A DNA stretch of 64,000 nucleotides from Gammaproteobacteria bacterium (GTDB taxonomy: Bacteria; Pseudomonadota; Gammaproteobacteria; PS1; Pseudothioglobaceae): NCBI GenBank assembly GCA_965217125.1, contig OZ244244.1, positions 719,358-783,357 on the forward strand. The letters run 5' to 3'. The notes under the pieces were generated by a model, which saw only the letters and a program-made list of their open reading frames with translations, ran no database searches and was not told where the DNA came from. Positions 6,717 through 46,911 of the stretch are shown here, one piece after another (position 1 is the first letter of the stretch; every line of letters begins with the position of its first letter). Made by a program: the position numbers and the translations under genes.

Positions 6717-6835
6717 AACAAATAAAATGAAAAATAACAATAAAAGGGCAACGCCGCCATTATTTTAAAAAAAACTTTTTTATTTATAAATAATGCTATA
6801 AAATAAAAATTTATATTAACCACTAATAATTTATT
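6717..6835 (+). repeat. Intergenic family unit, copy 0 (upstream of paralogue A)
   Basis: aacaaataaaatgaaaaataacaataaaaggg..gcc..ttatttt-A(n)-c-T(n)-atttataaataatgNtataaaat-leader. The same unit recurs at 10273-, 14945-, 18055- and 22760-. Confidence 0.85.
6794..6802 (+). promoter_or_regulatory. Putative extended -10 promoter element (TGcTATAAA) for paralogue A
   Basis: A conserved TGnTATAAA/TATAAT lies about 35-45 nt upstream of the ATG in all four family units. No transcript data. Confidence 0.3.
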
Positions 6836-9800
6836 ATGAAAAAAATAATCCTAACACTACTATTAACCCTCTCAGCCTTAATTAATGTTAATGCTGCTAC
6901 AGCTTTTTCCTTAGATATTGATGGCAATGGGACTATTAATGCCTCTAATGATGGATTAGTTATCTTTAAATATTTACTAAACTCTAATGCTAACAATTTA
7001 CATACTACTATTTCTAGTAATGCTGCTGATGACAGAAAAACAACCGCACAGTTGAAGGCTTATTTAGATAGTGCAGGAGGTATTTTAGATATTGATGGCA
7101 ATGGGAGTACTAATGCCTCTAATGATGGCTTGATTATCTTTAAATATTTACTAAACTCTAATGCTAACAATTTACATACTACTATTGCTAGTAATGCAGT
7201 TGGTAGCAAAACAACAACCGTAGATTTGAAGGCTTATTTAGACCAATATATTGGCTCCGTTGTAATTACTACTGGAACTGCTACTGTAACTGGAACTTTT
7301 AAGGAATCTGATCTTGATGCTGGTGCTGAATATACAAACAATGATAATGATGACTTAGATAGCGGAACTTATGTTGATACTTTTATTACAGAATTAGAAG
7401 ATGGAGTTGAAGTTGATATATCTAAAAGAACACTTACTGGAACTATCTACACTGTTACCCGTGATGTTAACACTGGAACTGCTACTGTAACTGCAACATT
7501 CTTTGAGTCTGATGTTGGAGATAAAAACAAGGATACTGATACCTTAGATAATGGAACTTATATTGAGACTTTTACTACAGAATTTATTAATGGAGTTGAA
7601 GATACATCTAAAAGAACACTTACTATAACTACCTACACTGTTACCAGTGATATTAACACTGGAACTGCTACTGAAATTGGAACTTTTAGTGAATCTGACC
7701 CTGCTATTGGAAATCAAAACAATGATAATGATGACTTAGATAGTGGAACTTATGTTAAGATTTTTGCTACAGAATTTATTAATGGAGTTGAAGATACATC
7801 TAAAAGAACACTTACTATAACTACCTACACCGTTACCAGCGATGTTAACACTGGAACTGCTACTGCAACTGGAACTTTTAGTGAATCTGATCTTGAAGCT
7901 GGTGATGAATATACAAACAATGATAATGATGACTTAGATAGTGGAACTTATGTTAGGACTTTTACTACAGAATTTATTAATGGAGTTGAAGATACATCTA
8001 AAAGAATACTTATTGAAACTATCTACACTATTACCAATGATGTTACTCCTGTTGAAAGTGAATTAACTGCTATTTATGCTGCTGATACTCCTCCAACTGC
8101 ATTTATCAGTGGTGGTGCTATCGATACTGTGGCATTAGCAATACCAACTGGTGCTGGAAATGCTCAAAGTAGAGTTGATTTTCTATCATTATTAGATTCA
8201 GGATCAACTGCTACAATACAACAAGTACACTCTGGTGATACTAACAATCCTTCATACATTGTATTTCAACAAAATCAAGGAACTGTTAATGCTCTTGTGA
8301 ATGGAACTTATAGTGATATAGCTACAACAGATTTTAGAGATTGGGCTTTAGAAGTTGTAAAAGCAATTTGGCATTTAGAACACCCTAATTATGCTAGAGC
8401 GAAGCAACTTTCTGAGTTAATAGGCCAACACGGTATTACTGCCGGTCAAGTGAATTATAGTGGTGGCATGCAAATCTGGAATTATACTCAAAACGGAACT
8501 GATTATAATTTTTCATTCGGAACAGCCAGTTCTTTAATTGAAATAACTGATTGGGATACTAAATTTCAGGAATTATTATATACAGTAAATCCTAATTCTC
8601 ACGCAGCAAGAAAAGCTGTTTTAGAATCTTATAATTCTATTGACGGCATTTCTAATCTTGAAGTGAAAACAACTGGAACTATTACTATTACTTATTTAAC
8701 ATGGGATTTGAATGGAACTTTACAACCTAACTATTATTTTAGCGCTACTAATCCAACTATAAATGCACAAGGAGATACTGATGGTGATCTTTCAGCTCTT
8801 TCTACACAACAATTTGAGCAATATAGAGAGAGATTGTATAATAAATTAATTGATCATTTTCCAACTCCTGCTGAAATTAGAGCTATTAGAATAGCTGACA
8901 TTGCAGATTTAGATGATGCTGCTACTGATGTAACAATCACTAATAGTTTCTCCAATACTGTTGGAGATACATTTCAAATAAATGTAGTAGGTGATCCTGT
9001 TTATCAATCTGAATTTTCCACAAATACTTATGAAAATGGAATTTTATTATTTGAAAATTTAGGAGATACCCAATGGATTAATATGAAGCAAGCAATTTCT
9101 GATGAAATTGGTAACATTGATGATGATATTACAGAAAGAAACATAAGAATTGCTGTATTAATTCAAAATGCAAATAATGATGTAACTGTAGATGCTCTAT
9201 ATAATGCTGTTCGTGGTGATCTTTTTGAATTAGATAATGGCACTACAAAAGCACAGATCTATGTTAATGATTATGATCTTCCGCTTGTATCAGGTGGATA
9301 TACAAGGTTAGAAAATTTAGAATCAACAAGTGAGTATAGCGCACTGGACACAGCGATAGCCGCAAAAGCCACTGAATTGCAAAATGAAATCTTTGAAGTA
9401 GCATTTCAAGCTTTTTATGATTTAGATACACTTCCAGCCACACTTCCAAGTGTTATTGATGTTGCTGCTCAAGCAGTAAGCACTAGTGGTTCTAGCGGTC
9501 TTCCCAGAAAGGATTTTATGAAGTTGTTAGGAAAATTTGGAGTTACAATAGTTAATGTAATTGATGTCTCTTCCAATGATAAATCTTATGTTGAATTATC
9601 TAGTAATGTTAATGTTTATGCTCTTGTTAATGGTTTTACTTATCAATTAGATCCAAGTGATTTTAGTGATTGGGTTTTTGAAGTTATGAAAGAAGTTTGG
9701 GATCACGGACATACTACTAATGAGCAAAGAGGTGGAATCATAAATGGTGCTTTTGATACAGATACTCTTGATGTTAAAATATTAACATTTACAGAACCAC

Positions 9801-10237
9801 AATCACTTCATGATTGGTGGGTTCATTTCAATGATATCCTAATACTATCTGGTGGCACATCTGCTGACCCAATGTATAACAATGAATATACTGCAAACAT
9901 TCATGTTGAAAGTATGACTGAAGCAGTTTATCAAAGACTTCTTGTATTTATTCAATACATGGTTGATAATCAAGCAAGATTAAAACTTATTACTGGTTAT
10001 AATGATAGAGAACAAGAAATACAAGATTTAACAACCGAATTTGGTGCTAGTGTTAGCATATCTTTATCTGTTAATAATGAAAATCATTTTACATTTTCAA
10101 AGAATAATGAAAGTAGTCTTCCAGTTCAATCTAATTGGACTCATTCTGTAGGAGTAACTCTTGAACAATTAAGTGCTGATAATTGGGTAAAATTCTATGC
10201 AAAATGTAGAGGTATCCTAATTGGATTAGGTAACTAA
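6836..10237 (+). CDS. Giant secreted mosaic protein, family member A (1133 aa): signal peptide, 2 dockerin/EF-hand-like repeats, 4 tandem repeats of 62-67 aa, shuffled modules
   Basis: 3.4-kb uninterrupted ORF. MKKIILTLLLTLSALINVNA signal peptide, then two copies of LDIDGNG.(I/T)NASNDGL(I/V)IFKYLLNSNANNLHTTI. The N-terminal 140 aa is nearly identical to B, C and D. The C-terminal ~150 aa is shared with D. Confidence 0.9.
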   Translation: MKKIILTLLLTLSALINVNAATAFSLDIDGNGTINASNDGLVIFKYLLNSNANNLHTTISSNAADDRKTTAQLKAYLDSAGGILDIDGNGSTNASNDGLIIFKYLLNSNANNLHTTIASNAVGSKTTTVDLKAYLDQYIGSVVITTGTATVTGTFKESDLDAGAEYTNNDNDDLDSGTYVDTFITELEDGVEVDISKRTLTGTIYTVTRDVNTGTATVTATFFESDVGDKNKDTDTLDNGTYIETFTTEFINGVEDTSKRTLTITTYTVTSDINTGTATEIGTFSESDPAIGNQNNDNDDLDSGTYVKIFATEFINGVEDTSKRTLTITTYTVTSDVNTGTATATGTFSESDLEAGDEYTNNDNDDLDSGTYVRTFTTEFINGVEDTSKRILIETIYTITNDVTPVESELTAIYAADTPPTAFISGGAIDTVALAIPTGAGNAQSRVDFLSLLDSGSTATIQQVHSGDTNNPSYIVFQQNQGTVNALVNGTYSDIATTDFRDWALEVVKAIWHLEHPNYARAKQLSELIGQHGITAGQVNYSGGMQIWNYTQNGTDYNFSFGTASSLIEITDWDTKFQELLYTVNPNSHAARKAVLESYNSIDGISNLEVKTTGTITITYLTWDLNGTLQPNYYFSATNPTINAQGDTDGDLSALSTQQFEQYRERLYNKLIDHFPTPAEIRAIRIADIADLDDAATDVTITNSFSNTVGDTFQINVVGDPVYQSEFSTNTYENGILLFENLGDTQWINMKQAISDEIGNIDDDITERNIRIAVLIQNANNDVTVDALYNAVRGDLFELDNGTTKAQIYVNDYDLPLVSGGYTRLENLESTSEYSALDTAIAAKATELQNEIFEVAFQAFYDLDTLPATLPSVIDVAAQAVSTSGSSGLPRKDFMKLLGKFGVTIVNVIDVSSNDKSYVELSSNVNVYALVNGFTYQLDPSDFSDWVFEVMKEVWDHGHTTNEQRGGIINGAFDTDTLDVKILTFTEPQSLHDWWVHFNDILILSGGTSADPMYNNEYTANIHVESMTEAVYQRLLVFIQYMVDNQARLKLITGYNDREQEIQDLTTEFGASVSISLSVNNENHFTFSKNNESSLPVQSNWTHSVGVTLEQLSADNWVKFYAKCRGILIGLGN
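7271..8046 (+). repeat. Four in-frame tandem repeats (201, 186, 192 and about 192 nt) inside paralogue A
   Basis: Units start with actggaactgctact (TGTAT) at 7271, 7472, 7658 and 7850. Each encodes TGTAT..GTF.ESD......D.D.LD(S/N)GTY...F.TE(F/L).(N/D)GVE..SKRTL...(T/I)YT(V/I)T.D(V/I)N. Confidence 0.9.
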
Positions 10238-10247
10238 ACAATGTTAT

Positions 10248-10265
10248 TCCCGTCTTCGGGCGGGA
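10248..10265 (+). terminator. Hairpin TCCCGTC-TTCG-GGCGGGA followed by TTT (3' of paralogue A)
   Basis: 7-bp stem (one G-U) with a UUCG tetraloop. The identical element follows paralogue D at 22737-22754. Confidence 0.6.
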
Positions 10266-10343
10266 TTTAACTTAAATAAAATGAAAAATAACAATAAAAG
10301 GGCAGTGCCGCTTATTTAAAAAAACTTTTTTATCTATAAATAA

Positions 10344-10352
10344 TGGTATAAA
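10344..10352 (+). promoter_or_regulatory. Putative extended -10 (TGgTATAAA) for paralogue B
   Basis: Conserved position in the family unit, identical to the D copy at 18134-18142. Confidence 0.3.
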
Positions 10353-10385
10353 ATAGAAAGTTATCTTAACTACCACTAACTTATC

Positions 10386-13300
10386 ATGAAAAAAATAATC
10401 CTAACACTACTATTAACCCTCTCAGCCTTAGTTAATGTTAATGCTGTTGCAGCTTTTTCCTTAGATATTGATGGCAACGGGACTATTAACGCCTCTAACG
10501 ATGGCTTGATTATCTTTAAATATTTACTAAACTCTAATGCTAACAATTTACATACTACCATTTCTAGTAATGCAGCTGATGACAGAAAAACAACCGCACA
10601 GTTGAAAGCTTATTTAGATAATTCAGGAGATATTTTAGATGTTGATGGCAACGGGACTACTAATGCCTCTAATGATGGCTTGATTGTCTTTAAATATTTA
10701 CTAAACTCTAATGCTAACAATTTACATACTACTATTGCTAGTAATGCACCTGGTAGCAAAACAACAACCATAAATTTGAAGGCTTATTTAGACCAATATA
10801 CTAACACTGATGTTTCTAACATGTATTCAGGGGATAGACCTACTGAACTTACAGCAGAACAAATTGCTGATGCTAATGGAGCTGGAACTGAGCAGGAACA
10901 TCTAGCTGTATTACAAACTGCGGGATTTTCTAATTATCGAATTTCCTTTGATTACGAAGCTATACAAGTGTGGGTTCTTGATACAGATTTGAGCATAGGA
11001 ACTATTTATGCAAGAATACAACTTCCTAGTGATTTACAACAACTACGCACTTCTTTAGATGATGCTGAATTTCAAGCAATTTTCCTTGAAACTATTCAAG
11101 CAATATGGGATTTAGTAAATCCTATTACTGAAAGGCAAAGTAGATTAAATCAACTTGATGCTTTAGAAACTAAATATAATATACTATCTTCTAGTTTAAC
11201 TGAATCGGGGGAATTTCAAACAACGAATAAATTTGTTACTTATCTTTATCAATTAACTCAAGGAACGGATGAGACTTACCAATTTGGTGAGTTTGATTAT
11301 ATTGAAGATGTAACTGATTGGGATACTAAACTTCAAGAATTAGAGGATCAAGTAAATCCTCCTACTACTGCCACTTATCAAACTGATCTAGCAGCGATAT
11401 TCGCTAATGATACTGCTCCAACGGAGCTTACTCCTTTATTAACTGCTGAAGCTAATAGGGTTGCTAATACAACAAGCTCACAAGATAAGAAAAATCTATT
11501 TGAAAATCTGACAGGAGATGGTGTTACTGTAACTTATGGTTTCGATAGTACTGATGAATTCTTTACTGTATCTTCTAACGGAAATTCTATTTCAAATAAT
11601 GTTATAGCTAATTTTATAGTTACTGTTAATCCAGATGAAGCTGATTTAAGATCAGTATTCTTTAATGTTATATTAGAGAAATGGAATCAATTATATCCTG
11701 CTCCTCTTACAGCAGCTGAAGAGCTTGTTGCTATATTTGCTTTAGGAACTTCTCCAACTGCTTTTGTTGATTATCCTGCATTAGATGCAGAAGCAGATGG
11801 TATTTTACAAGCTGCAAGAGCACAACATATTGTCAATTCATTAACAAATCTTAACGGAGTTACAGTAACTTACACAATTAACACTACTCCTAAATCATTT
11901 AATGTAGCAAAAGCAGGTGAAACTACTATTAATGTTCTTCAAGATTCATCAAGTGGAAGTGCTGTTTCGCTTGATACTCTTTCCGTTTTTAAAGATATTT
12001 ATTTCCAAACTATTCAAGCAAAATGGGATATATTACATCCTGCTGTTACTGAAAGGCAAAGTAGGCTCAATCAACTTGATGCTTTAGGAACTAAATATGA
12101 AGTACTATCTTCTAATTTGTTGGAATCTGGAAATGAACCAGAAGGAACAAGTAAATATGTTGTTTATAGTTATCAATTAATCCACGGTACAACTGAGAGT
12201 TACCAATTTGGTGCCTTCGATTTTATTCAAGATGTAACTGATTGGGATACTAAACTTCAAGCATTAGAGGATCAAATAAAAAGAGAAGATAGATTAAATG
12301 ATTTTGCCGGTTTAGTTGGTCAGTATGGTGTTACTTCGATGTCGGCAAACGATGCTGATTCTAATGGTGAACTTTTTGCAGCTTACATACAAGATGGGGG
12401 TTCTGTAACAGGTTTCTCATTCGGTATATATGCTAATTTTGGTGTAATTCCACAATCAATATTTGATACTAAATTCGATGAACTCGTAGCTAAATTAATA
12501 GCTGATGAAGTAACTGGACCCACTGTTGAAAGTGAGGCTGAAGATTTTTATGCTTCAACTGAACCTCCGACAGGATTTGTTGCTAACAGCCTTATTGATG
12601 CTGAAGCACAATCATTTAGAGATGATCAATCTAGCTCAAGATCAGTGTTTTTAGAAAGACTCTCTTCTTCAACTTATCGTCTCAGTTCAGCGTCTGCTGT
12701 TGATGGGTATGTAACGTATGATATAATTACTTTTACCTCAAATACTGCTATTGAAACAATTTCTGCTGATGTTAGTGGTGCTTTGACTAAACAAGAATTC
12801 AGTGATTTTACTTTTAAGCTTATGTTAGCGGTCTGGCATTTAGAACATCCTAATTATGTTGCACCAACTCCTTTTGAAATTGAGCTTGCGGCTCTTTATG
12901 CTTCTAATACTGCTCCAACAGGATTTGTCAGTGGTGGTGCTATTGAAACTGAAGCATTAGCTTTTCAAAGTCCTTTAGGTTCTGTTATAGAAACTTTCAT
13001 GCAGAAATTAAATTCTGAAAACTATGAAGTATTTTCATTAGGTGCCGTTATACCAGTAAAAGTTACTCTTAAAACTGGTCAATCTATTGATAGTCCTTAC
13101 GATGATATAACTGTAGGAAATCACACTGGAGCACAAATTAGAGATTGGGCTTTAGAAGTTGTAAAAGCAATATATCTTTTAGAAAATCCTCCACTTTCTC
13201 TTGAAGAGGAAATTGCAGCTATGTATGATGCTGCAACACCTCCAACTTCATTTGTTGATACTATTGGTGACGCTGCTATATTAGCTAATCAAAATGCAAC

Positions 13301-14903
13301 AGTCCCACCTCTTCAGCAATCTAGAATCGATTTTATAAGTCTATTTGATAAATATGGACTTGTTTTTACTGGATTTGATGGCTTTACGGCTGAGTATGCT
13401 AATAATAGTGATTTTCCTAGTGTTGCATTACCTGGTGGAAATAATCTTACTGATACTAGCTTCAAAGCGTGGGCATTAGCAATCGCTGAAGCGATATGGC
13501 ATTATGGCCATCCTAATTATGTAGATTATGCTGCATTAAGAGCTGAAAGAATAGCAGAAATCAAAGTTTTAGATGATGCTTCTGTTAATGTAACGATTGC
13601 TAATTTTATCCATCCTACTGATGGGGATACATTCGAAATCAGCATAGCAGATGATACTTTCCTTTTACCTCAATTCTCTACAACTGATTATGAAAGTGGA
13701 GTTTTAGGATTTGCATATTTAGGAGATAATGAATGGGATACTATGAAGTCAGATATTTCTGATAAAATTACTGAAATTGATGATGATATTTCACTGAGAA
13801 ACGATAGGAGAGCTGTATTGATTCAAAATTCAAATGATGATGTAACTGTTGGTACTCGATATGATGGTACTCCTCTTGGAGATGCTGATCCTGGTCGTGG
13901 TGATCTTTTTGAAATATTTAACGCTTCTCTTACAGAGTATGCTTATGTTAATGATTTTGATCTAGACGCAACAGGCGATTACACAAGATTAGAAGATTTA
14001 ACTGATGCTGAGTATAATTCATTAAATGATGCAATTATTGCTAAAGTTGAGGAATTAGATCCTGCTAATACTGTAGCTAATTATGGCTTTATTCCAGCAG
14101 ACTACGCTAATGCTCCTGCAACAGCTAAACGTGATTATTTAGTAAATTGGGGTAATACTAATAGAGTTCTCGCAATCACAAGTTTTGTTGCAGGCGGAGG
14201 TGCTAATATTAATCCTTTCGTGCAATTTAAGTATGGACAATATCCTAAACAATTTGAAGAATCAGTAAGTAATGGTGCTTCATATGCTGATTGGAAAATC
14301 TTTGTAGATAGAGTAAAGTATTTGTTAGCTGCTGGAGATGATTCTGATGAACTGAAAGCTGCTAGAGAAACAGAAGTTGCTGGATTAAGTTCTGGAATTG
14401 TTGATATTGAATTAGGATCTCCTGGTAATAATGATTGGGACATACAATTTAATGGTCTTAATTTCATTTACGGAGGTTTTACGCCAACTGATATTGGTAA
14501 TGCTTTTGCTAATGTATATAATGAAAGTAAAATTGAAAAACTTTCTGGTGCTGGATTTGAAGCTTTACTTGTAGAGATTGTAAGAATTAGAACTCTTGTA
14601 CTTGAAGCTGATGCATTAGAAAGAAATACTGATCAAAGAAAAAATCATTGGACTAATGTTGATAATGCAATATGGTTTGGGAATACTAGTGTAGAGTGGG
14701 TATTAATAGGAACTAATGATCCCTTCTATAGTAATACTAACTATGGTAACCAAGATGGAGCTCAATGTGTTGGATATGCAACCCTCAGTGCTATGGACAA
14801 CTACAATTGGAGATATCTTTATATTATTGCTAAAAATGAGTTGTTAAAACAAGCTGGTACTACATACTATAATCATTTACCACAAAATGAATGCACGCCT
14901 TAA
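10386..14903 (+). CDS. Giant secreted mosaic protein, family member B (1505 aa)
   Basis: 4.5-kb ORF with the same signal peptide and double dockerin-like N-terminus. The body consists of ~100-aa modules, many ending in (A/V)(I/V)W(H/D)(L/Y)(E/G)(H/N)PNY-like helices. The first ~170 aa are almost identical to D. Confidence 0.9.
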   Translation: MKKIILTLLLTLSALVNVNAVAAFSLDIDGNGTINASNDGLIIFKYLLNSNANNLHTTISSNAADDRKTTAQLKAYLDNSGDILDVDGNGTTNASNDGLIVFKYLLNSNANNLHTTIASNAPGSKTTTINLKAYLDQYTNTDVSNMYSGDRPTELTAEQIADANGAGTEQEHLAVLQTAGFSNYRISFDYEAIQVWVLDTDLSIGTIYARIQLPSDLQQLRTSLDDAEFQAIFLETIQAIWDLVNPITERQSRLNQLDALETKYNILSSSLTESGEFQTTNKFVTYLYQLTQGTDETYQFGEFDYIEDVTDWDTKLQELEDQVNPPTTATYQTDLAAIFANDTAPTELTPLLTAEANRVANTTSSQDKKNLFENLTGDGVTVTYGFDSTDEFFTVSSNGNSISNNVIANFIVTVNPDEADLRSVFFNVILEKWNQLYPAPLTAAEELVAIFALGTSPTAFVDYPALDAEADGILQAARAQHIVNSLTNLNGVTVTYTINTTPKSFNVAKAGETTINVLQDSSSGSAVSLDTLSVFKDIYFQTIQAKWDILHPAVTERQSRLNQLDALGTKYEVLSSNLLESGNEPEGTSKYVVYSYQLIHGTTESYQFGAFDFIQDVTDWDTKLQALEDQIKREDRLNDFAGLVGQYGVTSMSANDADSNGELFAAYIQDGGSVTGFSFGIYANFGVIPQSIFDTKFDELVAKLIADEVTGPTVESEAEDFYASTEPPTGFVANSLIDAEAQSFRDDQSSSRSVFLERLSSSTYRLSSASAVDGYVTYDIITFTSNTAIETISADVSGALTKQEFSDFTFKLMLAVWHLEHPNYVAPTPFEIELAALYASNTAPTGFVSGGAIETEALAFQSPLGSVIETFMQKLNSENYEVFSLGAVIPVKVTLKTGQSIDSPYDDITVGNHTGAQIRDWALEVVKAIYLLENPPLSLEEEIAAMYDAATPPTSFVDTIGDAAILANQNATVPPLQQSRIDFISLFDKYGLVFTGFDGFTAEYANNSDFPSVALPGGNNLTDTSFKAWALAIAEAIWHYGHPNYVDYAALRAERIAEIKVLDDASVNVTIANFIHPTDGDTFEISIADDTFLLPQFSTTDYESGVLGFAYLGDNEWDTMKSDISDKITEIDDDISLRNDRRAVLIQNSNDDVTVGTRYDGTPLGDADPGRGDLFEIFNASLTEYAYVNDFDLDATGDYTRLEDLTDAEYNSLNDAIIAKVEELDPANTVANYGFIPADYANAPATAKRDYLVNWGNTNRVLAITSFVAGGGANINPFVQFKYGQYPKQFEESVSNGASYADWKIFVDRVKYLLAAGDDSDELKAARETEVAGLSSGIVDIELGSPGNNDWDIQFNGLNFIYGGFTPTDIGNAFANVYNESKIEKLSGAGFEALLVEIVRIRTLVLEADALERNTDQRKNHWTNVDNAIWFGNTSVEWVLIGTNDPFYSNTNYGNQDGAQCVGYATLSAMDNYNWRYLYIIAKNELLKQAGTTYYNHLPQNECTP

Positions 14904-15061
14904 TTAAATAACGGTTAAACCGGGGTTTGATTCCCCGAGTTTAACTAACAAATAAAATGAAAAATAAGAATAAAATGGTAGCGTTGCCCTTATTTTTAAA
15001 AACTTTTTATTTATAAATAATGGATATAATAGCAGCTTAGATTAATTATTATTAATTTACC
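14904..15061 (+). repeat. Intergenic family unit, copy 2 (B 3' hairpin plus C promoter/leader)
   Basis: aacaaataaaatgaaaaataagaataaaatggtagcgttgcccttattttt-A5-c-T5-atttataaataatggatataat. More diverged than the other copies. Confidence 0.8.
14914..14945 (+). terminator. Long hairpin GTTAAAC-CGGGG-TTTGATT-CCCCG-A-GTTTAAC (3' of paralogue B)
   Basis: 12 paired positions in two helices. The same element, with an imperfect outer arm, follows paralogue C at 18024-18055. Confidence 0.5.
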
Positions 15062-17992
15062 ATGAAAAAAATAATCCTAACACTACTATTAACCCTATCA
15101 ACCTTAGTTAATGTTAATGCTGTTGCAGCTTTTTCCTTAGATATTGATGGCAACGGGACTATTAACGCCTCTAATGATGGCTTGATTATCTTTAAATATT
15201 TACTAAACTCTAATGCTAACAATTTACATACTACTATTTCTAGTAATGCAGCTGATGACAGAAAAACAACCGCACAGTTGAAGGCTTATTTAGATAGTGC
15301 AGGAACTATTTTAGATATTGATGGCAACGGGACTACTAATGCCTCTAATGATGGCTTGATTGTCTTTAAATATTTACTAAACTCTAATGCTAACAATTTA
15401 CATACTACCATTGCTAGTAATGCACCTGGTAGCAAAACAACAACCATAGATTTAAAGACTTATTTAGACCAATATATTAGCACTGATGTTTCTAACATGT
15501 ATTCAGGGGATAGACCTACTGAACTTACAGCAGAACAAATTGCTGATGCTAATGGTGCTGCAAATGATTCTAATGCTCATCTTACTGTTTTACGATATGC
15601 AAACTTTGGAGATTATGTTGTAAATATTCTTAGTGACAAAATCGTAATTAGAGATGAATCAGATAATTATGCAATTGTTTATGAAATCACCTCTTCAGAG
15701 AATAATTTAGCTCAACTTGATGATGCTGAATTTCAAGCACTTTATCTTGAAGTTATTCAAGCAATATGGGATTTAATAAATCCTGTTACTGTTGAAAGTG
15801 AAGTAGCAAAACTATATGCTGCTGAAGATGCTCCAACCTCACTTGGAGATTTTATACAAACTTACTTTGAAAATGAGGAAGTATTTGGAATTCTTGCAGA
15901 TTTCCAAAAATTAGCTAGTGAAAATTATGAAATAACAGGGTATGGTACGACTGTAGTTAACATAAACTTATCCATTGGTTATATTACATTATCTAATGGT
16001 GATGAAGTTCCTTTTCCTGATAAAAATTTTAGCTCACTCAATGGATCAGATCTTGCTGACTGGGCTTTAGCTATTGTACAAGCAATATGGGATTTAGAAA
16101 ATCCTAACGCTGGACCTACTTATCAAGATGACCTGATAGCGATATTCGCTAGTGATACTGCTCCAACGGAGCTTACTCCTTTATTAACTGCTGAAGCTAA
16201 TAGGGTTATTGGTACAGAAACTACAGTAGATAATAAAGAGCTGTTTACTAATCTATCTGGAGATGGTGTTGATGTAACTTATGGAGGAGATGGTAGTGGT
16301 AATGAAATATTCGCTGTATCTTCTTTCATCGATGGAAATTCTATTTCAAATAACATTATAGTTAATCAACTAATTACTTCTTCTCCAAATGAAGCTAATT
16401 TCAGATCAGCATTCTTTGATGCTATATTAGAGAAATGGAATCAACTACATCCTTCTGCTGCTCTTGAAGATGAAATTACAGCTATTTATGAAGCTGATCT
16501 TCCTCCAACTGAACTTACTGATCTTATTAAAGATGCATGTGAAAGTTATGGAAATTGGACTAATAATACACTTCCTGCACTTAATAGGTTTGGAGTTACA
16601 TTTACTAGTTTTGATGGTAGTACTATTGTGTATAATGGAATTGATAATACCAATAATAGTGCTGGTAGTAATACTGCAAGAAGAACTGCAACTTTAGAGA
16701 TTATGACTAAAATATGGCATGTAGGACATCCTAATTATGTGGATCCTACTACTCATGCTGCTAGAGCAGCTGTTTTAACAGCTTACAACTCTATTGATGG
16801 GATTTCTAACATTACTGTAAAACTATCAAATTCAAATAATCTTTCGACTGCTAGTGTTTATTTGACTTGGAAATTGAATGAAGTTGCTCAAGATTTCTGG
16901 TATTTTAGTGCTACTAATCCAACTTCAACCACTGATGGAGAAGTTCGAGGTGATCTTTCATATCTTTCTCCAGAACAGTTTGAGACTTACAGAGAGAGAT
17001 TGTACAATAAATTAACTGATCATATTCAAACTCCTGCTAAATTAAGAGCGGCTAGAATAGTTGAAATCAAAGTTTTAGATGATGCTTCTGATAATGTGAT
17101 AATTACTAATTATATAGATCCTACTGATGGAGATACATTCATAATTGATGTATTAGGCGAACCTAGTCTCCAATCTGAATATTCTACAACTACTTATGAA
17201 AGTGGAGTTCAAGGATTTGGATATTTAGGAACTACTCAATGGGATGCTATGAAGAAAGATATTTCTGATAAGATTGATGAAATTGATATAGCTTTAACAC
17301 CTACTATTACTGATGAACTTGCTGCTTTCTATAGCGGTGAAGCTCCTGATACTATAGCTACAGGTGGTGATGCTTATGGAAATCAACTTCCTCCTGCAAT
17401 TCACACTGCTGCTGTTGCCGCATGGAATACTAATATTCATGATACCATGCTTGCATTCCTTAGAACTCTTTCTCAAGAGGCTACTGGTAATTTTGGTGAT
17501 TCTACTGATCCAGTTACGACTAATGGTATAAGTTATTATGGATCTACTGGATTTGTTGTTGTTAGAAACCTTGATAGAGGACAAGTTAGTGGTACAGTTG
17601 CCCAAGGTGGTGATGGAGGTTATGGTTACCATGATATTGATCTTGGATCCCCTACTCTTTATCTTAATGGTTGGAGTAACTTGAATTTCACACATTTAAG
17701 TGAAACAAACTTTACTACACTTGCTTATCATGTAATGTCTAATTTCTATGATTTACAACAAACAGTTAGGCAAACTAGAATACTTGATCTTTTATCTATA
17801 GATTCTAGATTATACGTTTCTAGAACAGATGATGGTTCAGCAGATTCTGTTAGGCGTGATTCCGGTAGTGGTTATCAAAATATAGGTGTTAACCATTATG
17901 GTAGTACTCAGACAGGTGTAACTACATTTGAAGGATTATCGACCGCACAATATGCTCATTATAGAGCTTATGTAGTAGCACTTCAATTTTAA
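15062..17992 (+). CDS. Giant secreted mosaic protein, family member C (976 aa)
   Basis: 2.9-kb ORF with the same N-terminal cassette. It shares modules with A (HAAR.AVL..YNSIDGISN...YRERLYNKL), B and D (YSGDRPTELTAEQIADANGA; TAPTELTPLLTAEANRV). The C-terminus is unique (...YRAYVVALQF). Confidence 0.9.
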   Translation: MKKIILTLLLTLSTLVNVNAVAAFSLDIDGNGTINASNDGLIIFKYLLNSNANNLHTTISSNAADDRKTTAQLKAYLDSAGTILDIDGNGTTNASNDGLIVFKYLLNSNANNLHTTIASNAPGSKTTTIDLKTYLDQYISTDVSNMYSGDRPTELTAEQIADANGAANDSNAHLTVLRYANFGDYVVNILSDKIVIRDESDNYAIVYEITSSENNLAQLDDAEFQALYLEVIQAIWDLINPVTVESEVAKLYAAEDAPTSLGDFIQTYFENEEVFGILADFQKLASENYEITGYGTTVVNINLSIGYITLSNGDEVPFPDKNFSSLNGSDLADWALAIVQAIWDLENPNAGPTYQDDLIAIFASDTAPTELTPLLTAEANRVIGTETTVDNKELFTNLSGDGVDVTYGGDGSGNEIFAVSSFIDGNSISNNIIVNQLITSSPNEANFRSAFFDAILEKWNQLHPSAALEDEITAIYEADLPPTELTDLIKDACESYGNWTNNTLPALNRFGVTFTSFDGSTIVYNGIDNTNNSAGSNTARRTATLEIMTKIWHVGHPNYVDPTTHAARAAVLTAYNSIDGISNITVKLSNSNNLSTASVYLTWKLNEVAQDFWYFSATNPTSTTDGEVRGDLSYLSPEQFETYRERLYNKLTDHIQTPAKLRAARIVEIKVLDDASDNVIITNYIDPTDGDTFIIDVLGEPSLQSEYSTTTYESGVQGFGYLGTTQWDAMKKDISDKIDEIDIALTPTITDELAAFYSGEAPDTIATGGDAYGNQLPPAIHTAAVAAWNTNIHDTMLAFLRTLSQEATGNFGDSTDPVTTNGISYYGSTGFVVVRNLDRGQVSGTVAQGGDGGYGYHDIDLGSPTLYLNGWSNLNFTHLSETNFTTLAYHVMSNFYDLQQTVRQTRILDLLSIDSRLYVSRTDDGSADSVRRDSGSGYQNIGVNHYGSTQTGVTTFEGLSTAQYAHYRAYVVALQF

Positions 17993-18175
17993 TACATTGT
18001 TGAACTACAATAATTAAGTAACGGTTAAACCGGGGTTTGATTCCCCGAGATTAACTAACAAATAAAACGGAAAATAACAATAAAAGGGCAGTGCCGCCCT
18101 TATTTTAAAAAAAACTTTCTTATCTATAAATAATGGTATAAAATAGAAAGTTATCTTAACTACCACTAACTTATC
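17993..18175 (+). repeat. Intergenic family unit, copy 3 (C 3' hairpin plus D promoter/leader)
   Basis: aacaaataaaacggaaaataacaataaaagggcagtgccgcccttatttt-A8-c-tttctt-atctataaataatggtataaaatagaaagttatcttaactaccactaacttatc. Confidence 0.85.
18024..18055 (+). terminator. Hairpin GTTAAAC-CGGGG-TTTGATT-CCCCG-A-GATTAAC (3' of paralogue C)
   Basis: Copy of the element at 14914-14945 with one mismatch in the outer arm. Confidence 0.45.
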
Positions 18176-21100
18176 ATGAAAAAAATAATCCTAACACTAC
18201 TATTAACCCTCTCAGCCTTAGTTAATGTTAATGCTGTTGCAGCTTTTTCCTTAGATATTGATGGCAATGGGACTATTAACGCCTCTAACGATGGCTTGAT
18301 TATCTTTAAATATTTACTAAACTCTAATGCTAACAATTTACATACTACCATTTCTAGTAATGCAGCTGATGACAGAAAAACAACCGCACAGTTGAAGGCT
18401 TATTTAGATAATTCAGGAGATATTTTAGATATTGATGGCAACGGGACTACTAATGCCTCTAATGATGGCTTGATTGTCTTTAAATATTTACTAAACTCTA
18501 ATGCTAACAATTTACATACTACTATTGCTAGTAATGCACCTGGTAGCAAAACAACAACCATAAATTTGAAGGCTTATTTAGACCAATATATTAGCACTGA
18601 TGTTTCTAACTTGTATTCAGGGGATAGACCTACTGAACTTACAGCAGAACAAATTGCTGATGCTAATGGAGCTGGAACTACTACAGAACATTTAGATGTA
18701 TTAAAAACTGCGGAATTTTCAAATTACGGGGTTTATCTAGATTTATCAGAGAAGCAAATATGGATTGTTGATACAGATGGAAATATAGGAACTGTTTATA
18801 CACGAATAGATCTTGGTGATAATTTCCAACAACTACATTCTTCCTTAAATAATGAAGAATTTCAAGCAATTTATCTTGAAACTATTCAAGCAATATGGGA
18901 TTTAGTAAATCCTGCTGTGGAATCTAGGCTAGATGAACTCAAGTCTATACTTATACAGAATGGCGCTACTTTCGTTGAATTCTTTGAACCTGCTAGTTCT
19001 AGTGCAATGGAGGTGACAATAACATGGGTTAGTAAAGATGGAATTACTGATTCTCACAATTTCGGAGAATTCGATACTCTTGATGATGTAGAGCCTTGGG
19101 CTGATAGACTTCAAGCATTTGAGGATCAAGTAAATCCTCCTACTACTGCCACTTATCAAACTGATCTAGCAGCGATATTTGCTAATGATACTGCTCCAAC
19201 GGAGCTTACTCCTTTATTAACTGCTGAAGCTAATAGAGTTGCTAATATCACAAATTCTTCAATAGCTAAGAGTGAGTTGTTTACTAATCTATCAGGAGAT
19301 GGTGTTACTGTAGTTTATGGAGCAGCAGATGGTAATGAAGTATTCACAGTATCTTCTAACGGAGGTTCTATTTCAAACAATATCATAGCTAATGGAATAA
19401 TTACTATTCCTGCTGTAGATGAAGCTGACGTAAGATCAATATTCTTTGATGTTATATTAGAGAAATGGAATCAACTATATCCTAATGCTGATTTATATTC
19501 AGGGGATAGACCTACTGAACTTACAGCGGAACAAATTGCTGCTGCTAATGGAGCTGTAACTGAGCAGGAACATATAGAGGTATTACAAACTGCGAAATTT
19601 TCTAACTATCGAATTGGATATAGTGCGGGAGAGAGACAAATATGGGTTCTTGATACAGATCTTACGATAGGAACTGTTTATGCAATAATACAACTCCCTA
19701 GTACTTTACAATCATTACGTACTTCTCTAGATCATGCTGAATTTCAAGGATATTTCCTGGAAACTATTCAAGCAATATGGGATTTAATAAATCCTACTAC
19801 TGTTGAAAGTGAAGTAGCAAAACTATATGCTGCTGAAAATGCTCCAACTGAGCTTGGAAGTTTCTTACAAACTTACTTTGAAGCTGAGTCTTTAACTGGA
19901 ATTATTGAAGATTTTGAAAAATTAACTGGTGAGAATTTTACAATAATTGAGTTAGGTTCGAAAGCAGCAACTGGAAACATTTCCATTGGCTATGTTGAAT
20001 TATCTAATAATGATATAATTGATGATCCTAGTGGTACAAACTTTATTGCACTCGATGGACCAAAACTTGCTAACTGGGCTTTAGCTATTGTACAAGCAAT
20101 ATGGGATTTAGAAAATCCTCCAACTCCTGCTGAAATTAAAGCAGCTAATGAATTAAAAATTACTAATCTTGTTGGTTCTTATAGTGTTACTGCTATAACC
20201 ATTTCAGATTCAAATGGTTTATATGCAGATTATGAGCAAACAGGTGTTACTAATTCAGCTGGTGGATCTATAATATCTTTCCACTTTGGGAGCTTTGCTA
20301 ATTTTGGTGTAATAGATCAAGTAACTTATGATACTAAATTCGATGAACTCGTAGCTAAATTGATAGCTGATGAAGTAACTGGACCCACTGTTGAAAGTGA
20401 AATTGCAACTCTTTATGCTGCTGATACTCCTCCAGAGGCTCTTGGTGATCTTATTACTGCTCAAACTGTAACTTTTAATGATTTTACTAATTTACTTGCA
20501 AAATTTAATAAATTTGGAGCTGAATATTCTAGTTTAAGTAATGATACTTTTACATATACTGGAATTGATCCTATATCTCACGCTTCTGGTGATGCAGCTC
20601 AACGAAAAGCTGTATCATTATTGATTGTTACTGCAATATGGCATTTAGGCCATCCTAATTATGTTGCACCAACTCCTTTTGAAATTGAGCTTGCGGCTGT
20701 TTATGATGCACCTAGCCCACCAACTTCGCTTGGAAGTGTTGTTAATGGTGCTGCATTAGCAGTAGAATTTGGTATTGCAGGAATTGCTCCAAGAACTAAT
20801 TTCATTAAATCATTAGCTCATTTTGGTGTTAGTGTAACTTCAGTTCATGATTCTAGTGGTAAACCATCTGAAGCACATTTATCTAATGGTAGTATTATTC
20901 CTAATATTGGAACTAATGATAACATGAATGATATGAGTCCTGCTCAATTTGCAGTTTTCGCTTTTGAAGTTGTTAAAGCATTCTGGCATATAGGAAATCC
21001 TAATTATGTAGACATTAATACTGTTGAAGGTGCACTTATAGCTCTTTATAACGCTGATACTCATCCAACTGAACTTGGAAGTGTTATCAATGATGCTGCT

Positions 21101-22720
21101 GGAGTTGCTTATGATAATCGTAGTGATAACGCAAATGATCCTAGACTAGCATTTATATCTAAACTTAATAAATTCGGTGTTGTATTTGAAGGATTTAATA
21201 ATAGCAATGGTAATCGATATGTTACTTTTGTTGATGATACTATTGATCCAATACAATCTCCTGTTGATGGAATTAATGTTACTACAGCACAATTCCAAGA
21301 ATGGATGTTAAATATTGCTAGAAATATATGGTTATATGGTCATCAAGATTACATATATGAACAAAGAGAAATTGATAGAATAGCTGAAATTTTAGCTATT
21401 GATACTGTTGCTGGCATTTCTATTAATTATGAAGCTCCGACATTTACTATTTCTAATGGTGATAAAGATAATATATCTCAGATAGATATTTCTTATGCTA
21501 TATTGAATGCTTATGATGATACTGATTTTCTTGCTAAGAAAGTTGAAGTACAAACAGCTTACGGTGTTCAATCTACTAATCTTGCTACAAGAACTTCTAG
21601 AAGTAGTGCATTGATAAACGGAAATAAAACTGGTTATGTATCTATTGCTGCTAATTATGATGATAGTAGAGGTGATCTTTTCAATATATCTTATGGAGGC
21701 ACTACACTGCACGAATATGCTGATACGCATTCTGGTGGATACATAAGATTAGAGAATTTAACTAACGATCAATATAGTGCTTTAGATGCTGCAATTACTG
21801 TAAAAGTAGTTGAATTAACTCCTACTGTTGCAAAAGAACTTGCTGCTTGGTTTGCTGATACTGATACTGCTCCGGTAGGATCTGCTCCAGAATGGCTTCC
21901 AACTGCATTGTATGCTAAAGCTAATACACTTAGTAATGGAACTGAAAGATTTGCTCTTATTACAGATGGATTACTTTCAGCTTATGGTGTTACTATAACT
22001 AGAGGAGGTGCAGGTGGAACTGGTGCCACAGTAACAACATTTATATTATCAAAAGGTGATGGATATGATGTTACTTTCGATTGGGGAGCTTATTCTGCTA
22101 ATGGTTTCAATGGTAGCAATGCATCTCCTGAACTATATAGAAATTTAGTATTTGATGTTATTTTAGCTGGATGGAAATTAGTAAATGAGACTAATAACAC
22201 TAAAAGAAGTGATATGTTAGATCAAGATTTAGATATAACTGGTAATGATGTTGAATTAATAACATATGGACAACCAAATTATGATTGGTGGATTTATTTT
22301 AATGTTGATGGACTTCAAATTCCAATATTATCTGGTGGTATAGCTAGTGATCCAATGTATTACAATAAGTACACTGTTAATCCTCATGATACTTACATGA
22401 CGGAAGTAGAATTCCAGAGATTAGTTGTATTTGTTACATTTATGAGAGATAATTTCACAAACTTAAAAGCTATAACTGGTGTACAAAATAGAAGTATTGA
22501 AATACAACAGATGGCTAATGATTTCGGAACTCATGCTACTATATCTGTCCAAAGTGATGGATCACACCATGTTACTTTTGCAAAAAATAACGGTGATACT
22601 CATCTTTATCCAGTTCAATCTAATTGGACTCATGCCGCAGGAACAGGTCTTGAAGACTTAAACCCTGATAGTTGGGTAAAATTCTATGCTAAATGTAGAG
22701 GTATAGCATTAGGAATATAG
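18176..22720 (+). CDS. Giant secreted mosaic protein, family member D (1514 aa)
   Basis: 4.5-kb ORF with the same N-terminal cassette. It has an internal duplication of the YSGDRPTELTAEQIA...IQAIWDL(V/I)NP module (about aa 146-246 and 440-540). The C-terminal domain is shared with A (...SGG.A.DPMY...QSNWTH..G..LE.L..D.WVKFYAKCRGI). Confidence 0.9.
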   Translation: MKKIILTLLLTLSALVNVNAVAAFSLDIDGNGTINASNDGLIIFKYLLNSNANNLHTTISSNAADDRKTTAQLKAYLDNSGDILDIDGNGTTNASNDGLIVFKYLLNSNANNLHTTIASNAPGSKTTTINLKAYLDQYISTDVSNLYSGDRPTELTAEQIADANGAGTTTEHLDVLKTAEFSNYGVYLDLSEKQIWIVDTDGNIGTVYTRIDLGDNFQQLHSSLNNEEFQAIYLETIQAIWDLVNPAVESRLDELKSILIQNGATFVEFFEPASSSAMEVTITWVSKDGITDSHNFGEFDTLDDVEPWADRLQAFEDQVNPPTTATYQTDLAAIFANDTAPTELTPLLTAEANRVANITNSSIAKSELFTNLSGDGVTVVYGAADGNEVFTVSSNGGSISNNIIANGIITIPAVDEADVRSIFFDVILEKWNQLYPNADLYSGDRPTELTAEQIAAANGAVTEQEHIEVLQTAKFSNYRIGYSAGERQIWVLDTDLTIGTVYAIIQLPSTLQSLRTSLDHAEFQGYFLETIQAIWDLINPTTVESEVAKLYAAENAPTELGSFLQTYFEAESLTGIIEDFEKLTGENFTIIELGSKAATGNISIGYVELSNNDIIDDPSGTNFIALDGPKLANWALAIVQAIWDLENPPTPAEIKAANELKITNLVGSYSVTAITISDSNGLYADYEQTGVTNSAGGSIISFHFGSFANFGVIDQVTYDTKFDELVAKLIADEVTGPTVESEIATLYAADTPPEALGDLITAQTVTFNDFTNLLAKFNKFGAEYSSLSNDTFTYTGIDPISHASGDAAQRKAVSLLIVTAIWHLGHPNYVAPTPFEIELAAVYDAPSPPTSLGSVVNGAALAVEFGIAGIAPRTNFIKSLAHFGVSVTSVHDSSGKPSEAHLSNGSIIPNIGTNDNMNDMSPAQFAVFAFEVVKAFWHIGNPNYVDINTVEGALIALYNADTHPTELGSVINDAAGVAYDNRSDNANDPRLAFISKLNKFGVVFEGFNNSNGNRYVTFVDDTIDPIQSPVDGINVTTAQFQEWMLNIARNIWLYGHQDYIYEQREIDRIAEILAIDTVAGISINYEAPTFTISNGDKDNISQIDISYAILNAYDDTDFLAKKVEVQTAYGVQSTNLATRTSRSSALINGNKTGYVSIAANYDDSRGDLFNISYGGTTLHEYADTHSGGYIRLENLTNDQYSALDAAITVKVVELTPTVAKELAAWFADTDTAPVGSAPEWLPTALYAKANTLSNGTERFALITDGLLSAYGVTITRGGAGGTGATVTTFILSKGDGYDVTFDWGAYSANGFNGSNASPELYRNLVFDVILAGWKLVNETNNTKRSDMLDQDLDITGNDVELITYGQPNYDWWIYFNVDGLQIPILSGGIASDPMYYNKYTVNPHDTYMTEVEFQRLVVFVTFMRDNFTNLKAITGVQNRSIEIQQMANDFGTHATISVQSDGSHHVTFAKNNGDTHLYPVQSNWTHAAGTGLEDLNPDSWVKFYAKCRGIALGI

Positions 22721-22820
22721 AATAAACAATGTTATTCCCGTCTTCGGGCGGGATTTAACTTAAATCAAATGGAAAATAAGAATAAAAGGGCAGTGCCACC
22801 TTTATTTTAAAAAAACTTTT
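22721..22820 (+). repeat. Intergenic family unit, copy 4, truncated (no gene follows)
   Basis: UUCG hairpin, then cttaaatcaaatggaaaataagaataaaagggcagtgccacctttatttt-A7-c-tttt. The sequence then switches abruptly into a NERD gene fragment. Confidence 0.8.
22737..22754 (+). terminator. Hairpin TCCCGTC-TTCG-GGCGGGA followed by TTT (3' of paralogue D)
   Basis: Identical to 10248-10265. Confidence 0.6.
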
Positions 22821-23008
22821 ACTCTCTAATATGGCAATTTCAACACAGCTGATAAAAATATGGTCAAATTGTGCCGTAATTCCGCTATGTTCTAAGCGAA
22901 TATCGTGCAAAATAACTGAATTTTCAGAGTTTTTATAATAGGTTTTAATATAGTAAGCATGGTCTTTTTCAGCCTTATACCCATTTTTCAAGTTTTGCAA
23001 TATCCTGT
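22812..23008 (-). pseudogene. Internal fragment (~195 nt) of a NERD-domain gene, frameshifted duplicate of 23966-24161
   Basis: Direct nucleotide alignment with the intact gene downstream (ctaatatggcaatttcaaca...gtaagcatggtctttttcagcc...caagttttgcaatatc). It has a 1-nt indel (cccattttt vs cccatttt) and lacks both gene ends. Confidence 0.85.
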
Positions 23009-23039
23009 ATTAAATTGAGTAACAAAGTAAAGGAGGATA

Positions 23040-23261
23040 ATGATGGCTAGTGATAGAGATACTTACAAATATCATTTAAAAAGAGGCAATAAAATCTTAC
23101 ATACAGGCATTACTAATGACTTACAACGCCGTGAATATGAGCATCAACAAAATTATGGAAACGCAGTTCATATTAAGCAAGTAGGCTATCGCACCACTCG
23201 CGAAGCCGGCTTTCAATGGGAAAAAGAACAAAGAAAAAATGGCAAGCCCGTAGGCCCATAA
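23040..23261 (+). CDS. Small free-standing GIY-YIG-like nuclease-family protein (73 aa)
   Basis: YKYHL.RGNKILHTGITNDLQRREYEH fits GIY..(10-11)..YxGxT.dL..R...H. A strong RBS (aaggagg) lies 6 nt upstream. Confidence 0.55.
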   Translation: MMASDRDTYKYHLKRGNKILHTGITNDLQRREYEHQQNYGNAVHIKQVGYRTTREAGFQWEKEQRKNGKPVGP

Positions 23262-23363
23262 AACATACTATTTTTATAAATATCTACCAATAGTTAAATT
23301 CTCAGTATTTCATAATTTATTTTTGATTTTGGGTCTTAACTATCTAAGGCCCATCTATTTTAT

Positions 23364-24266: not shown

Positions 24267-24450
24267 AATTTTATAAATACCTCATAATAGTTAGATTGTC
24301 AGTGTTATATTTAACTGCTAATGTTACGCCATAATTCCAACTGATTGTTTAATTAAAAAAACAGCAATATTTTCAGAGTAATTGTATTATAATTTACAGG
24401 GATGGTTTCAGTTTTTTTGATAGTATTTTTAAACAAGCGAGGTTGGAAAA

Positions 24451-40705: not shown

Positions 40706-40909
40706 ACCAATAACCAACATATCAGCATAGTCAAACAAACACTCAAAAGACAAAAAATTAGCTGATTATACTTCGCTTATTACTCATTGAGGCGATTAAA
40801 AGCAGGGTGGAATGAGTAAAGTTAACTTTGCAACCAGTGCATATTTTTGATATTTAGATGGCTTGGACAGGTTAAAATAAATATATTTTATAATTTAGTT
40901 ATATTTACA

Positions 40910-42937: not shown

Positions 42938-42942
42938 CAATT

Positions 42943-43593: not shown

Positions 43594-43619
43594 AAAATGA
43601 GCGATAAATTTTTATTTGA
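43593..43619 (+). repeat. 27-nt direct repeat (copy 1) equal to the res start region
   Basis: aaaaatgagcgataaatttttatttga occurs at 43593-43619 and at 44328-44354. Copy 1 opens only a 19-codon ORF (MSDKFLFDSIKEEFGRVAS*). Confidence 0.9.
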
Positions 43620-43698
43620 TAGCATAAAAGAAGAGTTTGGCAGAGTTGCGAGCTGATATTGATTATCAGTATATTTCTTCAATTAAACAAAGATTTTT

Positions 43699-43968: not shown

Positions 43969-43988
43969 CAATATGATGATGGGAATCC

Positions 43989-46866: not shown

Positions 46867-46911
46867 TAAAAAATTCAATTAAAATCACATAATCTAACAC
46901 ACAAACTTTAA

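Follow-up and report, generated by a model that had tools for sequence, protein, structure and literature searches.

The locus described here raises the question of how patches of nearly identical DNA have come to lie within paralogous genes that are otherwise diverged. It consists of four large-protein genes, named A to D, which are adjacent and all on the plus strand in a SUP05-clade sulfur-oxidising marine bacterium, and it was analysed as part of a stretch of 64,000 nt (the window; contig OZ244244.1, positions 719,358 to 783,357). An earlier note on this DNA had attributed the patches shared by B, D and C to segmental gene conversion or recombination, and had likened the genes to contingency or variable-surface families. 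Based on comparison of the genes with each other, with other strains and with a second locus, the patchwork is probably the footprint of homologous recombination in a lineage-restricted family of secreted modular proteins, the array members being four complete genes with promoter-like regions of their own.

Near-identical patches in genes B and D

When B and D were aligned at a fixed offset of 7790 nt, only 8 mismatches were found in 576 positions (-71 to +505 relative to the ATG; 10315-10890), located at 10317, 10329, 10478, 10607, 10641, 10801, 10804 and 10821. This bears out the earlier observation that the two genes are almost identical over roughly their first 500 coding nucleotides at that offset, with a single substitution in the first ~190 of them (C at 10478, T at 18268). 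A 4-nt indel upstream of 10315 ends the fixed offset. The gapped alignment reaches 10274 in B and 18060 in D, about 112 nt 5' of the ATG, so that the former estimate of "about 95 nt upstream" was fair. The antisense open reading frames (ORFs) at 10376-10561 and 18166-18351, which had been cited in support, do translate identically and are merely shadows of the sense genes. The block, referred to below as the 5' cassette, comprises in B a terminator-like hairpin, an A-tract, an extended -10-like element (TGGTATAAAAT), the 5' untranslated region (5'UTR), a signal peptide and two 58-aa repeats, and its 3' end is the first helix of module 1 (YSGDRPTELTAEQIA).

Identity along B and D was not uniform. 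The collinear alignment spans 1314 nt and has 229 mismatches. Its longest stretch without a mismatch was 159 nt, compared with a maximum of 72 nt in 2000 permutations; the max-chi2 statistic, which put the breakpoint at 10890, was 149.8 and did not exceed 26.1 in any permutation. With third codon positions alone, max-chi2 was 50.5 versus 21.3 in permutations. The proportion of synonymous differences (pS) was 0-0.04 in codons 1-160 and 0.25-0.65 in codons 161-324, with a dip to 0.055-0.11 in codons 305-364. Since the mosaic extends to synonymous and third-position sites, protein conservation does not account for the identity of B and D.

Further inside the genes, short islands of near-identity were located (Table 1). 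Positions 11360-11470 of B match 19138-19248 of D at 108 of 111 sites, the partner lying 2 nt away from where it had been placed before, and the 56-nt core of this island (11405-11460) is common to C. The two islands reported further downstream in B, and the patch reported in C, were likewise recovered opposite their expected partners. Gene D also carries two extra modules, which are collinear with 15500-16105 of C (73% identity) and over their first 300 nt resemble module 1 of B (85% identity).

Several short motifs recur at module junctions. The 28-nt IQAIWDL junction motif occurs six times in the window with no more than two mismatches, the 68-nt YSGDRPTELTAEQIA handle four times, and a 56-nt TAPTELTPLL patch is present in B, C and D. 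The limits of blocks with 97% identity or more fall close to module ends more often than expected, 25% of them being within 15 nt as compared with 9% at random (134 non-independent breakpoints). These motifs may serve as homology handles, or it may be that only recombinants which respect the junctions survive; the data do not separate the two.

Sequence sharing across paralogues, strains and loci

The strain set consisted of the window and four syntenic A-B-C-D arrays (L054 to L057; gene A is cut at the locus end in L057) that were found by exact look-up of homologues. Three of these came from one European Nucleotide Archive (ENA) sample and one from another; in one sample, ERZ25071281, several strains co-occur, with contig-name coverage tags of 6x to 39x. 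The flanking genes are 98-98.8% identical in nucleotide sequence to those of the window, with 0.04-0.08 synonymous substitutions per site (dS), and the window and the four loci therefore represent strains of one species. For six flanking genes the ratio of non-synonymous to synonymous substitution rates (dN/dS) was 0.03-0.28 (RDD, which shows no non-synonymous change relative to L054, gave 0 in that comparison).

The array genes behave differently from these flanks, with elevated dN/dS throughout. Amino acid identity between the window and other strains was 93-94% for A (dN/dS 0.92-1.17), 76-95% for B (0.71-0.83), 74-96% for C (0.64-0.92) and 53-70% for D (0.91-1.0, with dS up to 0.43). In 200-nt windows along the locus, runs of 100% identity alternate with stretches below 80%, the flanks staying at about 98%; A orthologues are mostly 92-100% identical. 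This alternation is the signature of recent transfers over old, maintained alleles.

The near-identity noted for B and D is real, but it is not special to that pair. The 5' block is 97-100% identical among every B, C and D copy of the five strains and one gene of the second locus described below, and about 92% identical in A. Between B and D, the cassette (-71 to +505) shows no fixed differences and 15 shared polymorphisms in the five strains. Of 171 informative site pairs in the cassette, 84 fail the four-gamete test. C differs from B and D by four fixed differences in -71 to -1 and by at most one in each coding part (coding positions 1-415 and 416-505), while nine fixed differences separate A from B in coding positions 1-415.

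Blocks were also found to be shared between genes at different positions in different strains (coordinates counted from the ATG; W_ denotes a window gene and L05x_ a gene of another strain's locus). W_B +682 to +966 is 99.3% identical to L057_D, and W_B +1327 to +1664 has counterparts of 97-99% identity in D of four strains, displaced by -102 to -372, and one of 96% identity in L057_C. W_D +718 to +1072 matches L053_X and L054_B at over 99%, and W_D +1590 to +1673 matches C genes at 96-98%. The downstream part of the same gene is an allelic patchwork, in which +1962 to +2210 resembles L055_D, +2159 to +3021 resembles L056_D and +2910 to +4625 resembles L054_D. The window D gene is thus a patchwork of the D alleles of three strains together with B-like and C-like modules. 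In the region of the two extra modules of D (19496-20119), no block of at least 96% identity and at least 80 nt was found in the D genes of the other four strains. Some stretches of B 10886-11036 and of D 19250-19950 have no match of 90% or more at the second locus or among the four other strains; if they had donors, these lie outside this strain set.

The second family locus is flanked by a mobA/mobB-like gene and by greA; in the L057 genome its distance from the array is about 370 kb. It holds three family genes in one strain, and its flanks are about 98% identical between its two strains. L058_X, a second-locus gene of the L057 genome, is 98-99% identical to B and D of the first locus from -74 to +500. 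L053_X, the first gene of the locus in another strain, has a 3-kb body that is 98.7% identical to W_B but a different cassette type. In L053 an rve-type insertion sequence (IS) element precedes the last gene, which is without a signal peptide. A short tract in the 5'UTR of A (-27 to -1) is of the B/D type in L054 and L056 and of the A type in the window and L055. It represents a short tract of conversion for which the species is polymorphic, and the exchange is therefore recent. Homologous recombination is documented in SUP05-clade symbionts (PMC7473567), and the window encodes RadA; the mechanics would presumably be of the RecA type.

The explanation that we consider probable would work in two ways. 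Non-allelic gene conversion or unequal exchange would take place among the array paralogues and with the second locus, anchored on the ~600-nt 5' cassette and on short nucleotide-conserved junction motifs, and allelic exchange would take place among co-occurring strains. Acting together, they would maintain a single sequence pool for the cassette that serves expression, export and anchoring in B, C, D and the second-locus gene, and whole modules would move between genes. In the module part, very old and very different alleles would be retained by diversifying or balancing selection exerted by a host, phage or competitor.

Several observations weigh against this explanation. A dN/dS near 1 is equally expected from relaxed constraint. 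The junctions are known from contigs alone, the comparison loci all being metagenome contigs and three of them from the same sample, and the enrichment of block ends at module ends counts breakpoints inherited by several strains more than once. Moreover, B-D cassette distances within genomes (9-23 differences) are no smaller than those between genomes (7-22), and no conversion event can therefore be dated to this particular genome. The same similarity rules out strictly within-genome concerted evolution. Same-locus exchange between strains is at least as important as intragenomic conversion.

Other explanations were weighed against recombination of both kinds. It is unlikely that there has been no non-allelic conversion, B, C and D being recent duplicates with undiverged 5' ends and the mosaicism being purely allelic between strains. 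Allelic patchwork is abundant, and the cassette pS among paralogues (~0.03) is near the genome-wide dS between strains given above; yet the rest of B and D is synonymously saturated (pS to 0.65), too far for the whole genes to have been duplicated recently. Near-identical blocks also lie in B of one strain and in D or C of another at different offsets, the locus ~370 kb away shares both the cassette and a B-type gene body, and the 5'UTR of A carries a polymorphic B/D-type tract. Collapsed repeats or a strain-chimeric consensus would have to be suspected in metagenome assemblies, since every sequence is from a metagenome-assembled genome or metagenome contig and several strains are present in ERZ25071281. 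Such an artefact is nevertheless very unlikely: the same A-B-C-D order and cassette recur in five contigs that are independent of each other and come from two or more samples, and also in an NCBI genome, and private single-nucleotide polymorphisms separate the cassette copies, which are thus not collapsed. Switching between syntenic haplotypes, moreover, cannot place B-type sequence in D, and the contig names resemble those of long-read assemblies, whose reads would probably span whole genes. Least probable of all is that the patches are held by selection, whether for protein features (signal peptide, anchor domain, junction motifs) or for nucleotide signals (promoter, mRNA). The patches do encode the most conserved protein motifs, the double repeat is conserved in ~45 other proteins, and the cassette includes promoter and UTR. 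Within the patches, however, conservation is no weaker at synonymous and third-position sites than at replacement sites, and the change is abrupt, while elsewhere the double repeat is only 63-82% identical at the protein level, so its function does not require nucleotide identity; the shared polymorphisms and four-gamete failures require exchange.

Programmed antigenic or phase variation, whether by silent donors (pilE/pilS, vlsE), switching of simple-sequence repeats, a diversity-generating retroelement (DGR) or a site-specific shufflon, is highly improbable. It could be suggested by the hypervariability of this secreted family, by the promoter A-tract of 5-9 A and by the A7 run at codons 2-3, but a promoter-like region, an ATG and a signal peptide stand on every copy, and all genes are co-oriented. 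In six-frame scans of the window, hidden Markov models (HMMs) of module and repeat matched the four complete genes and nothing else; module copies that are partial or lack a promoter were not found there. No coding simple-sequence repeats were found in the 5' regions with Tandem Repeats Finder (TRF), no frameshifted family copies among the strains compared, and no recombinase or reverse transcriptase among the array neighbours or the other ORFs scanned (part of those in the window). With complete, promoter-bearing copies and neither partial donors, repeats nor an adjacent recombinase, mechanisms of the pilE/pilS, contingency, DGR and shufflon types are therefore not supported. The contingency-locus part of the earlier proposal is accordingly not supported, the promoter A-tract being the only feature in that direction, and its conversion and recombination part is upheld by the synonymous mosaic, the shared polymorphisms, the cross-position blocks, the second-locus exchange and the 5'UTR tract of A.

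Each of the four window genes has an intact ORF, a promoter-like region, an ATG and a signal peptide, and 22 of 23 family copies are intact with promoter-like region and signal peptide, the remaining one being disrupted by an IS element. The hairpin, the A-tract and the extended -10-like TGGTATAAAAT are likewise present on every copy. The A-tract, which lies directly 5' of the -10-like element, has 8 A in gene A (6766-6775), 7 in B (10317-10325), 5 in C (14997-15003) and 8 in D (18106-18115). Across 22 copies it varies from 5 to 9 A, in which homopolymer sequencing error may have a part; the variation could represent such error, or a promoter-strength or phase-variation element. The A7 run at codons 2-3 is invariant.

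Encoded proteins and comparable systems

A Sec-type signal peptide (MKKIILTLLLTLSALVNVNA), read by eye, is located at the start of all four proteins. It is followed by two 58-aa repeats, each starting with DxDGNGxxNASNDGLIxFKYLL (174-nt period by TRF). Scans of the A-D proteins against Pfam and NCBIfam gave no matches. Against PDB sequences the 58-aa repeat gave a weak alignment with the calcium (Ca) loop plus helix of dockerins (4uyp_B and 2ccl_B; E ~0.05). Dockerin_1 (PF00404) matched 10 of 20 copies below its gathering threshold (best E 1.2e-4), the window copy of the double repeat scoring 14.5 bits against a cut-off of 22.9, and the Pfam EF-hand was likewise below threshold for the double repeat. 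An AlphaFold2 model of the double repeat, confident in only one of five models, was all-helical with two symmetric halves, and Foldseek comparison of it with the PDB returned no dockerin and nothing at E <= 0.001. The domain thus resembles type I dockerins and EF-hands in the Ca-loop-plus-helix start of the repeat, in being duplicated and in its position at a protein terminus. It differs from dockerin in its repeat period (58 aa versus ~22-24), in its sub-threshold Pfam scores and in the Foldseek result.

In ~45 proteins of the same genomes with cadherin, matrixin, He_PIG, Ig and subtilase domains (P0034-P0078), the same double repeat lies at the very C-terminus, with 63-82% amino acid identity, while in the array family it is N-terminal. 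A role as a genome-wide N-terminal leader was ruled out by its C-terminal position in the non-family proteins. Rather than directing secretion, it may be a portable domain, specific to the lineage, for binding or anchoring.

What remains of each protein is made up of small modules in series, each of ~110 aa including linker. A module HMM built from the B copies found nine in B, eight in D, four in C and two in A, and gave 276 matches across ~100 related proteins. Some module-bearing relatives have a different leader and are without the double repeat. The AlphaFold2 model of the module, based on an alignment of 23 diverse copies, was confident (predicted local distance difference test 88.5, predicted template modelling score 0.83) and consists of three short helices, a beta-hairpin and a long C-terminal helix with a conserved Trp. 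Comparison with PDB sequence profiles gave nothing significant (best E 0.05), and Foldseek gave no match, with best E values of 3.7 against the PDB and 0.65 against BFVD. Among 1.84 billion representative proteins, a profile search for the module returned no more than 41, and one or more of these are spurious. The module is an undescribed domain, alpha/beta as modelled, with a very narrow distribution. The predicted plan of the family would thus be a signal peptide, the 2x58-aa Ca-loop domain, 2 to at least 9 alpha/beta modules and a C-terminal domain. The gene family is new; searches of the literature for it, and for dockerin in Thioglobus, including Thioglobaceae preprints, returned nothing relevant. 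The variable-surface function that had been suggested for the genes is plausible from the signal peptide, the domain make-up and the dN/dS near 1, and the proteins would presumably lie on the cell surface or outside the cell.

As a mechanism, the recombination is of a known, textbook kind, comparable to that of the Helicobacter bab paralogues. In H. pylori, babA, babB and babC are full-length outer-membrane adhesin paralogues at separate loci, with near-identical ends and a divergent middle; intragenomic homologous recombination makes chimeric genes of them, and the occupancy of loci by alleles varies by strain (PMC4552749). The 5' cassette of the array likewise is a conserved end, and chimeras of B, D and second-locus genes vary between strains. 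The two systems have no relationship in sequence or fold: the bab genes encode beta-barrel outer-membrane proteins with CT-repeat phase variation, whereas the array encodes strings of small novel modules without a coding simple-sequence repeat, its genes are mostly in tandem, and exchange is at the level of modules with several internal handles. The Neisseria opa genes are also present as multiple complete, individually expressed copies, with conserved 5' parts and hypervariable blocks that are reassorted within and between strains, and they are controlled by a CTCTT repeat in the leader. The array shares the complete copies, the conserved 5' part and the reassortment of blocks within and between strains, but its proteins are unrelated to Opa, and no equivalent of the CTCTT repeat was found in it by TRF. 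At least two complete paralogues with their own promoter-like regions, ends that are near-identical down to synonymous sites, and chimeric alleles place the array in the bab/opa type, as a mechanistic class and not by homology. In the silent-cassette systems (Neisseria pilE/pilS, Borrelia vlsE, Anaplasma msp2 and Treponema tprK), partial donors that lack promoters are copied in one direction into a single expression site. Segmental conversion and mosaic variable regions flanked by conserved sequence are common to them and the array; in the array, however, all copies are complete genes, and partial donors are absent from the window.

A more far-reaching proposal, which we regard as tentative and rather doubtful, is that the array and the second locus form a dedicated combinatorial diversification system for the cell-surface coat of a symbiotic or free-living SUP05 bacterium. 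The cassette (promoter, signal peptide, Ca-dependent anchor) would then double as a recombination handle, the junction motifs would act as internal handles, and modules of unseen fold would be reassorted among genes and strains under frequency-dependent selection by host recognition or phage. The same anchor would tether the ~45 adhesin- or protease-like proteins to a cohesin-like partner.

Bacteria of the SUP05/Thioglobus clade include major sulfur oxidisers of the ocean and the symbionts of deep-sea mussels and clams, and many symbiont strains coexist in one such animal. A locus with 98% identical flanks, proteins down to 53% identical between strains, dN/dS near 1 and visible module shuffling offers, in the array proteins, concrete candidates for the molecules by which strains are distinguished by hosts, phages or each other. 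Two uncharacterised domains are also made available for structural and biochemical study, namely the repeated module and the portable Ca-loop double repeat of ~45 secreted proteins.

Feature coordinates and gene neighbourhood

The coordinates of the array genes, their cassettes and the shared patches are given in Table 1.

Table 1. Features of the A-D array and of the second family locus (positions in the window unless a locus is named)
Feature	Position	Strand	Remarks
Gene A	6836-10237	+	1133 aa; signal peptide, 2x58-aa Ca-loop repeat domain, four 64-aa tandem repeats, 2-3 modules (HMM scans)
Gene B	10386-14903	+	1505 aa; signal peptide, double repeat, at least 9 novel modules; alleles mosaic
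Gene C	15062-17992	+	976 aa; paralogue, at least 4 modules
Gene D	18176-22720	+	1514 aa; paralogue, at least 8 modules; most mosaic and most divergent array member
5' cassette of A	6720-7250	+	~92% identical to B/C/D; departs fully past the two repeats
5' cassette of B	10274-10890	+	max-chi2 breakpoint at 10890
5' cassette of C	14940-15567	+	coding part in B/D pool; promoter-proximal region its own
5' cassette of D	18060-18680	+	partner of B 10274-10890
Promoter-like region of B	10317-10354	+	A-tract (7 A), extended -10-like TGGTATAAAAT at 10344-10354; consensus matches only
Promoter-like region of D	18106-18144	+	8 A; consensus match only
2x58-aa Ca-loop repeat domain, coding region in B	10455-10814	+	D equivalent 18245-18604
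Island in B	11358-11457	+	99/100 identical to D 19136-19235; pS dip 0.055-0.11
Island partner in D	19136-19235	+	inside D +718 to +1072, 99% identical to B-type L053_X and L054_B
TAPTELTPLLTAEANRV patch in C	16150-16205	+	55/56 to B 11405-11460; 54/56 to D 19183-19238
Island in B	12440-12535	+	86/96 identical to D 20305-20400
Module-junction island WHLxHPNYVAPTPFEIELAA in B	12837-12893	+	55/57 identical to D 20642-20698
Two extra modules in D	19496-20119	+	begin with second copy of YSGDRPTELTAEQIA handle (the cassette 3' handle)
Intrinsic-terminator-like hairpin after A	10248-10265	+	identical to hairpin after D
Intrinsic-terminator-like hairpin after D	22736-22753	+	identical to hairpin after A
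Second locus	L058 8001-17671; L053 10001-19277		L058 in L057 genome

A protein identical to B (P0001) is encoded on a 1.95-Mb contig in NCBI and ENA. The housekeeping genes around the array are tRNA-Pro, a MoeB/ThiF-family adenylyltransferase gene, glyA, radA and serC. In a scan of genome contigs GlyA showed 84-85% amino acid identity to Thioglobus, SUP05 and Bathymodiolus-symbiont genomes, and the organism was therefore assigned to the SUP05 clade of gammaproteobacteria. The C-terminal domains of A and D are of one type (67% nucleotide identity over ~450 nt), and the 72 nt after A (10238-10309) are 95.8% identical to those after D (22726-22797). Between 7271 and 8045, gene A contains four tandem 192-nt (64-aa) repeats, which are 83% identical and Thr/Gly/Asp-rich (TGTATVTGTF...NNDNDDLDSGTY...); the same 64-aa repeat is present in a second-locus gene (P0099).

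A Spondin_N lipoprotein gene (5901-6704) is the immediate 5' neighbour of the array. A 12-nt tandem repeat within it (5964-6081) encodes a Gly/Asp/Ser/Thr-rich low-complexity stretch of SGD- and AGD-type units, and the length of the lipoprotein varies by strain from 255 to 271 aa. The 3' neighbours of the array are a NERD nuclease gene and a DUF7486 gene. The 3' flank of D (22720-24400) is strain-variable: a NERD-nuclease/Zn-ribbon gene (23364-24266, minus strand) is found in the window and L054, and HicB-like small genes stand in its place in L055 to L057. A partial NERD copy is seen at 22805-22987, which is a 92% direct repeat of 23960-24142. Further downstream, a low-GC (28-32%) defence-type island at 36948-55031 encodes a TrlF-family ATPase, a Schlafen/AlbA_2 protein, the mod and res subunits of a type III restriction-modification system, a RhuM-family protein, a large helicase and an MZB-domain protein.

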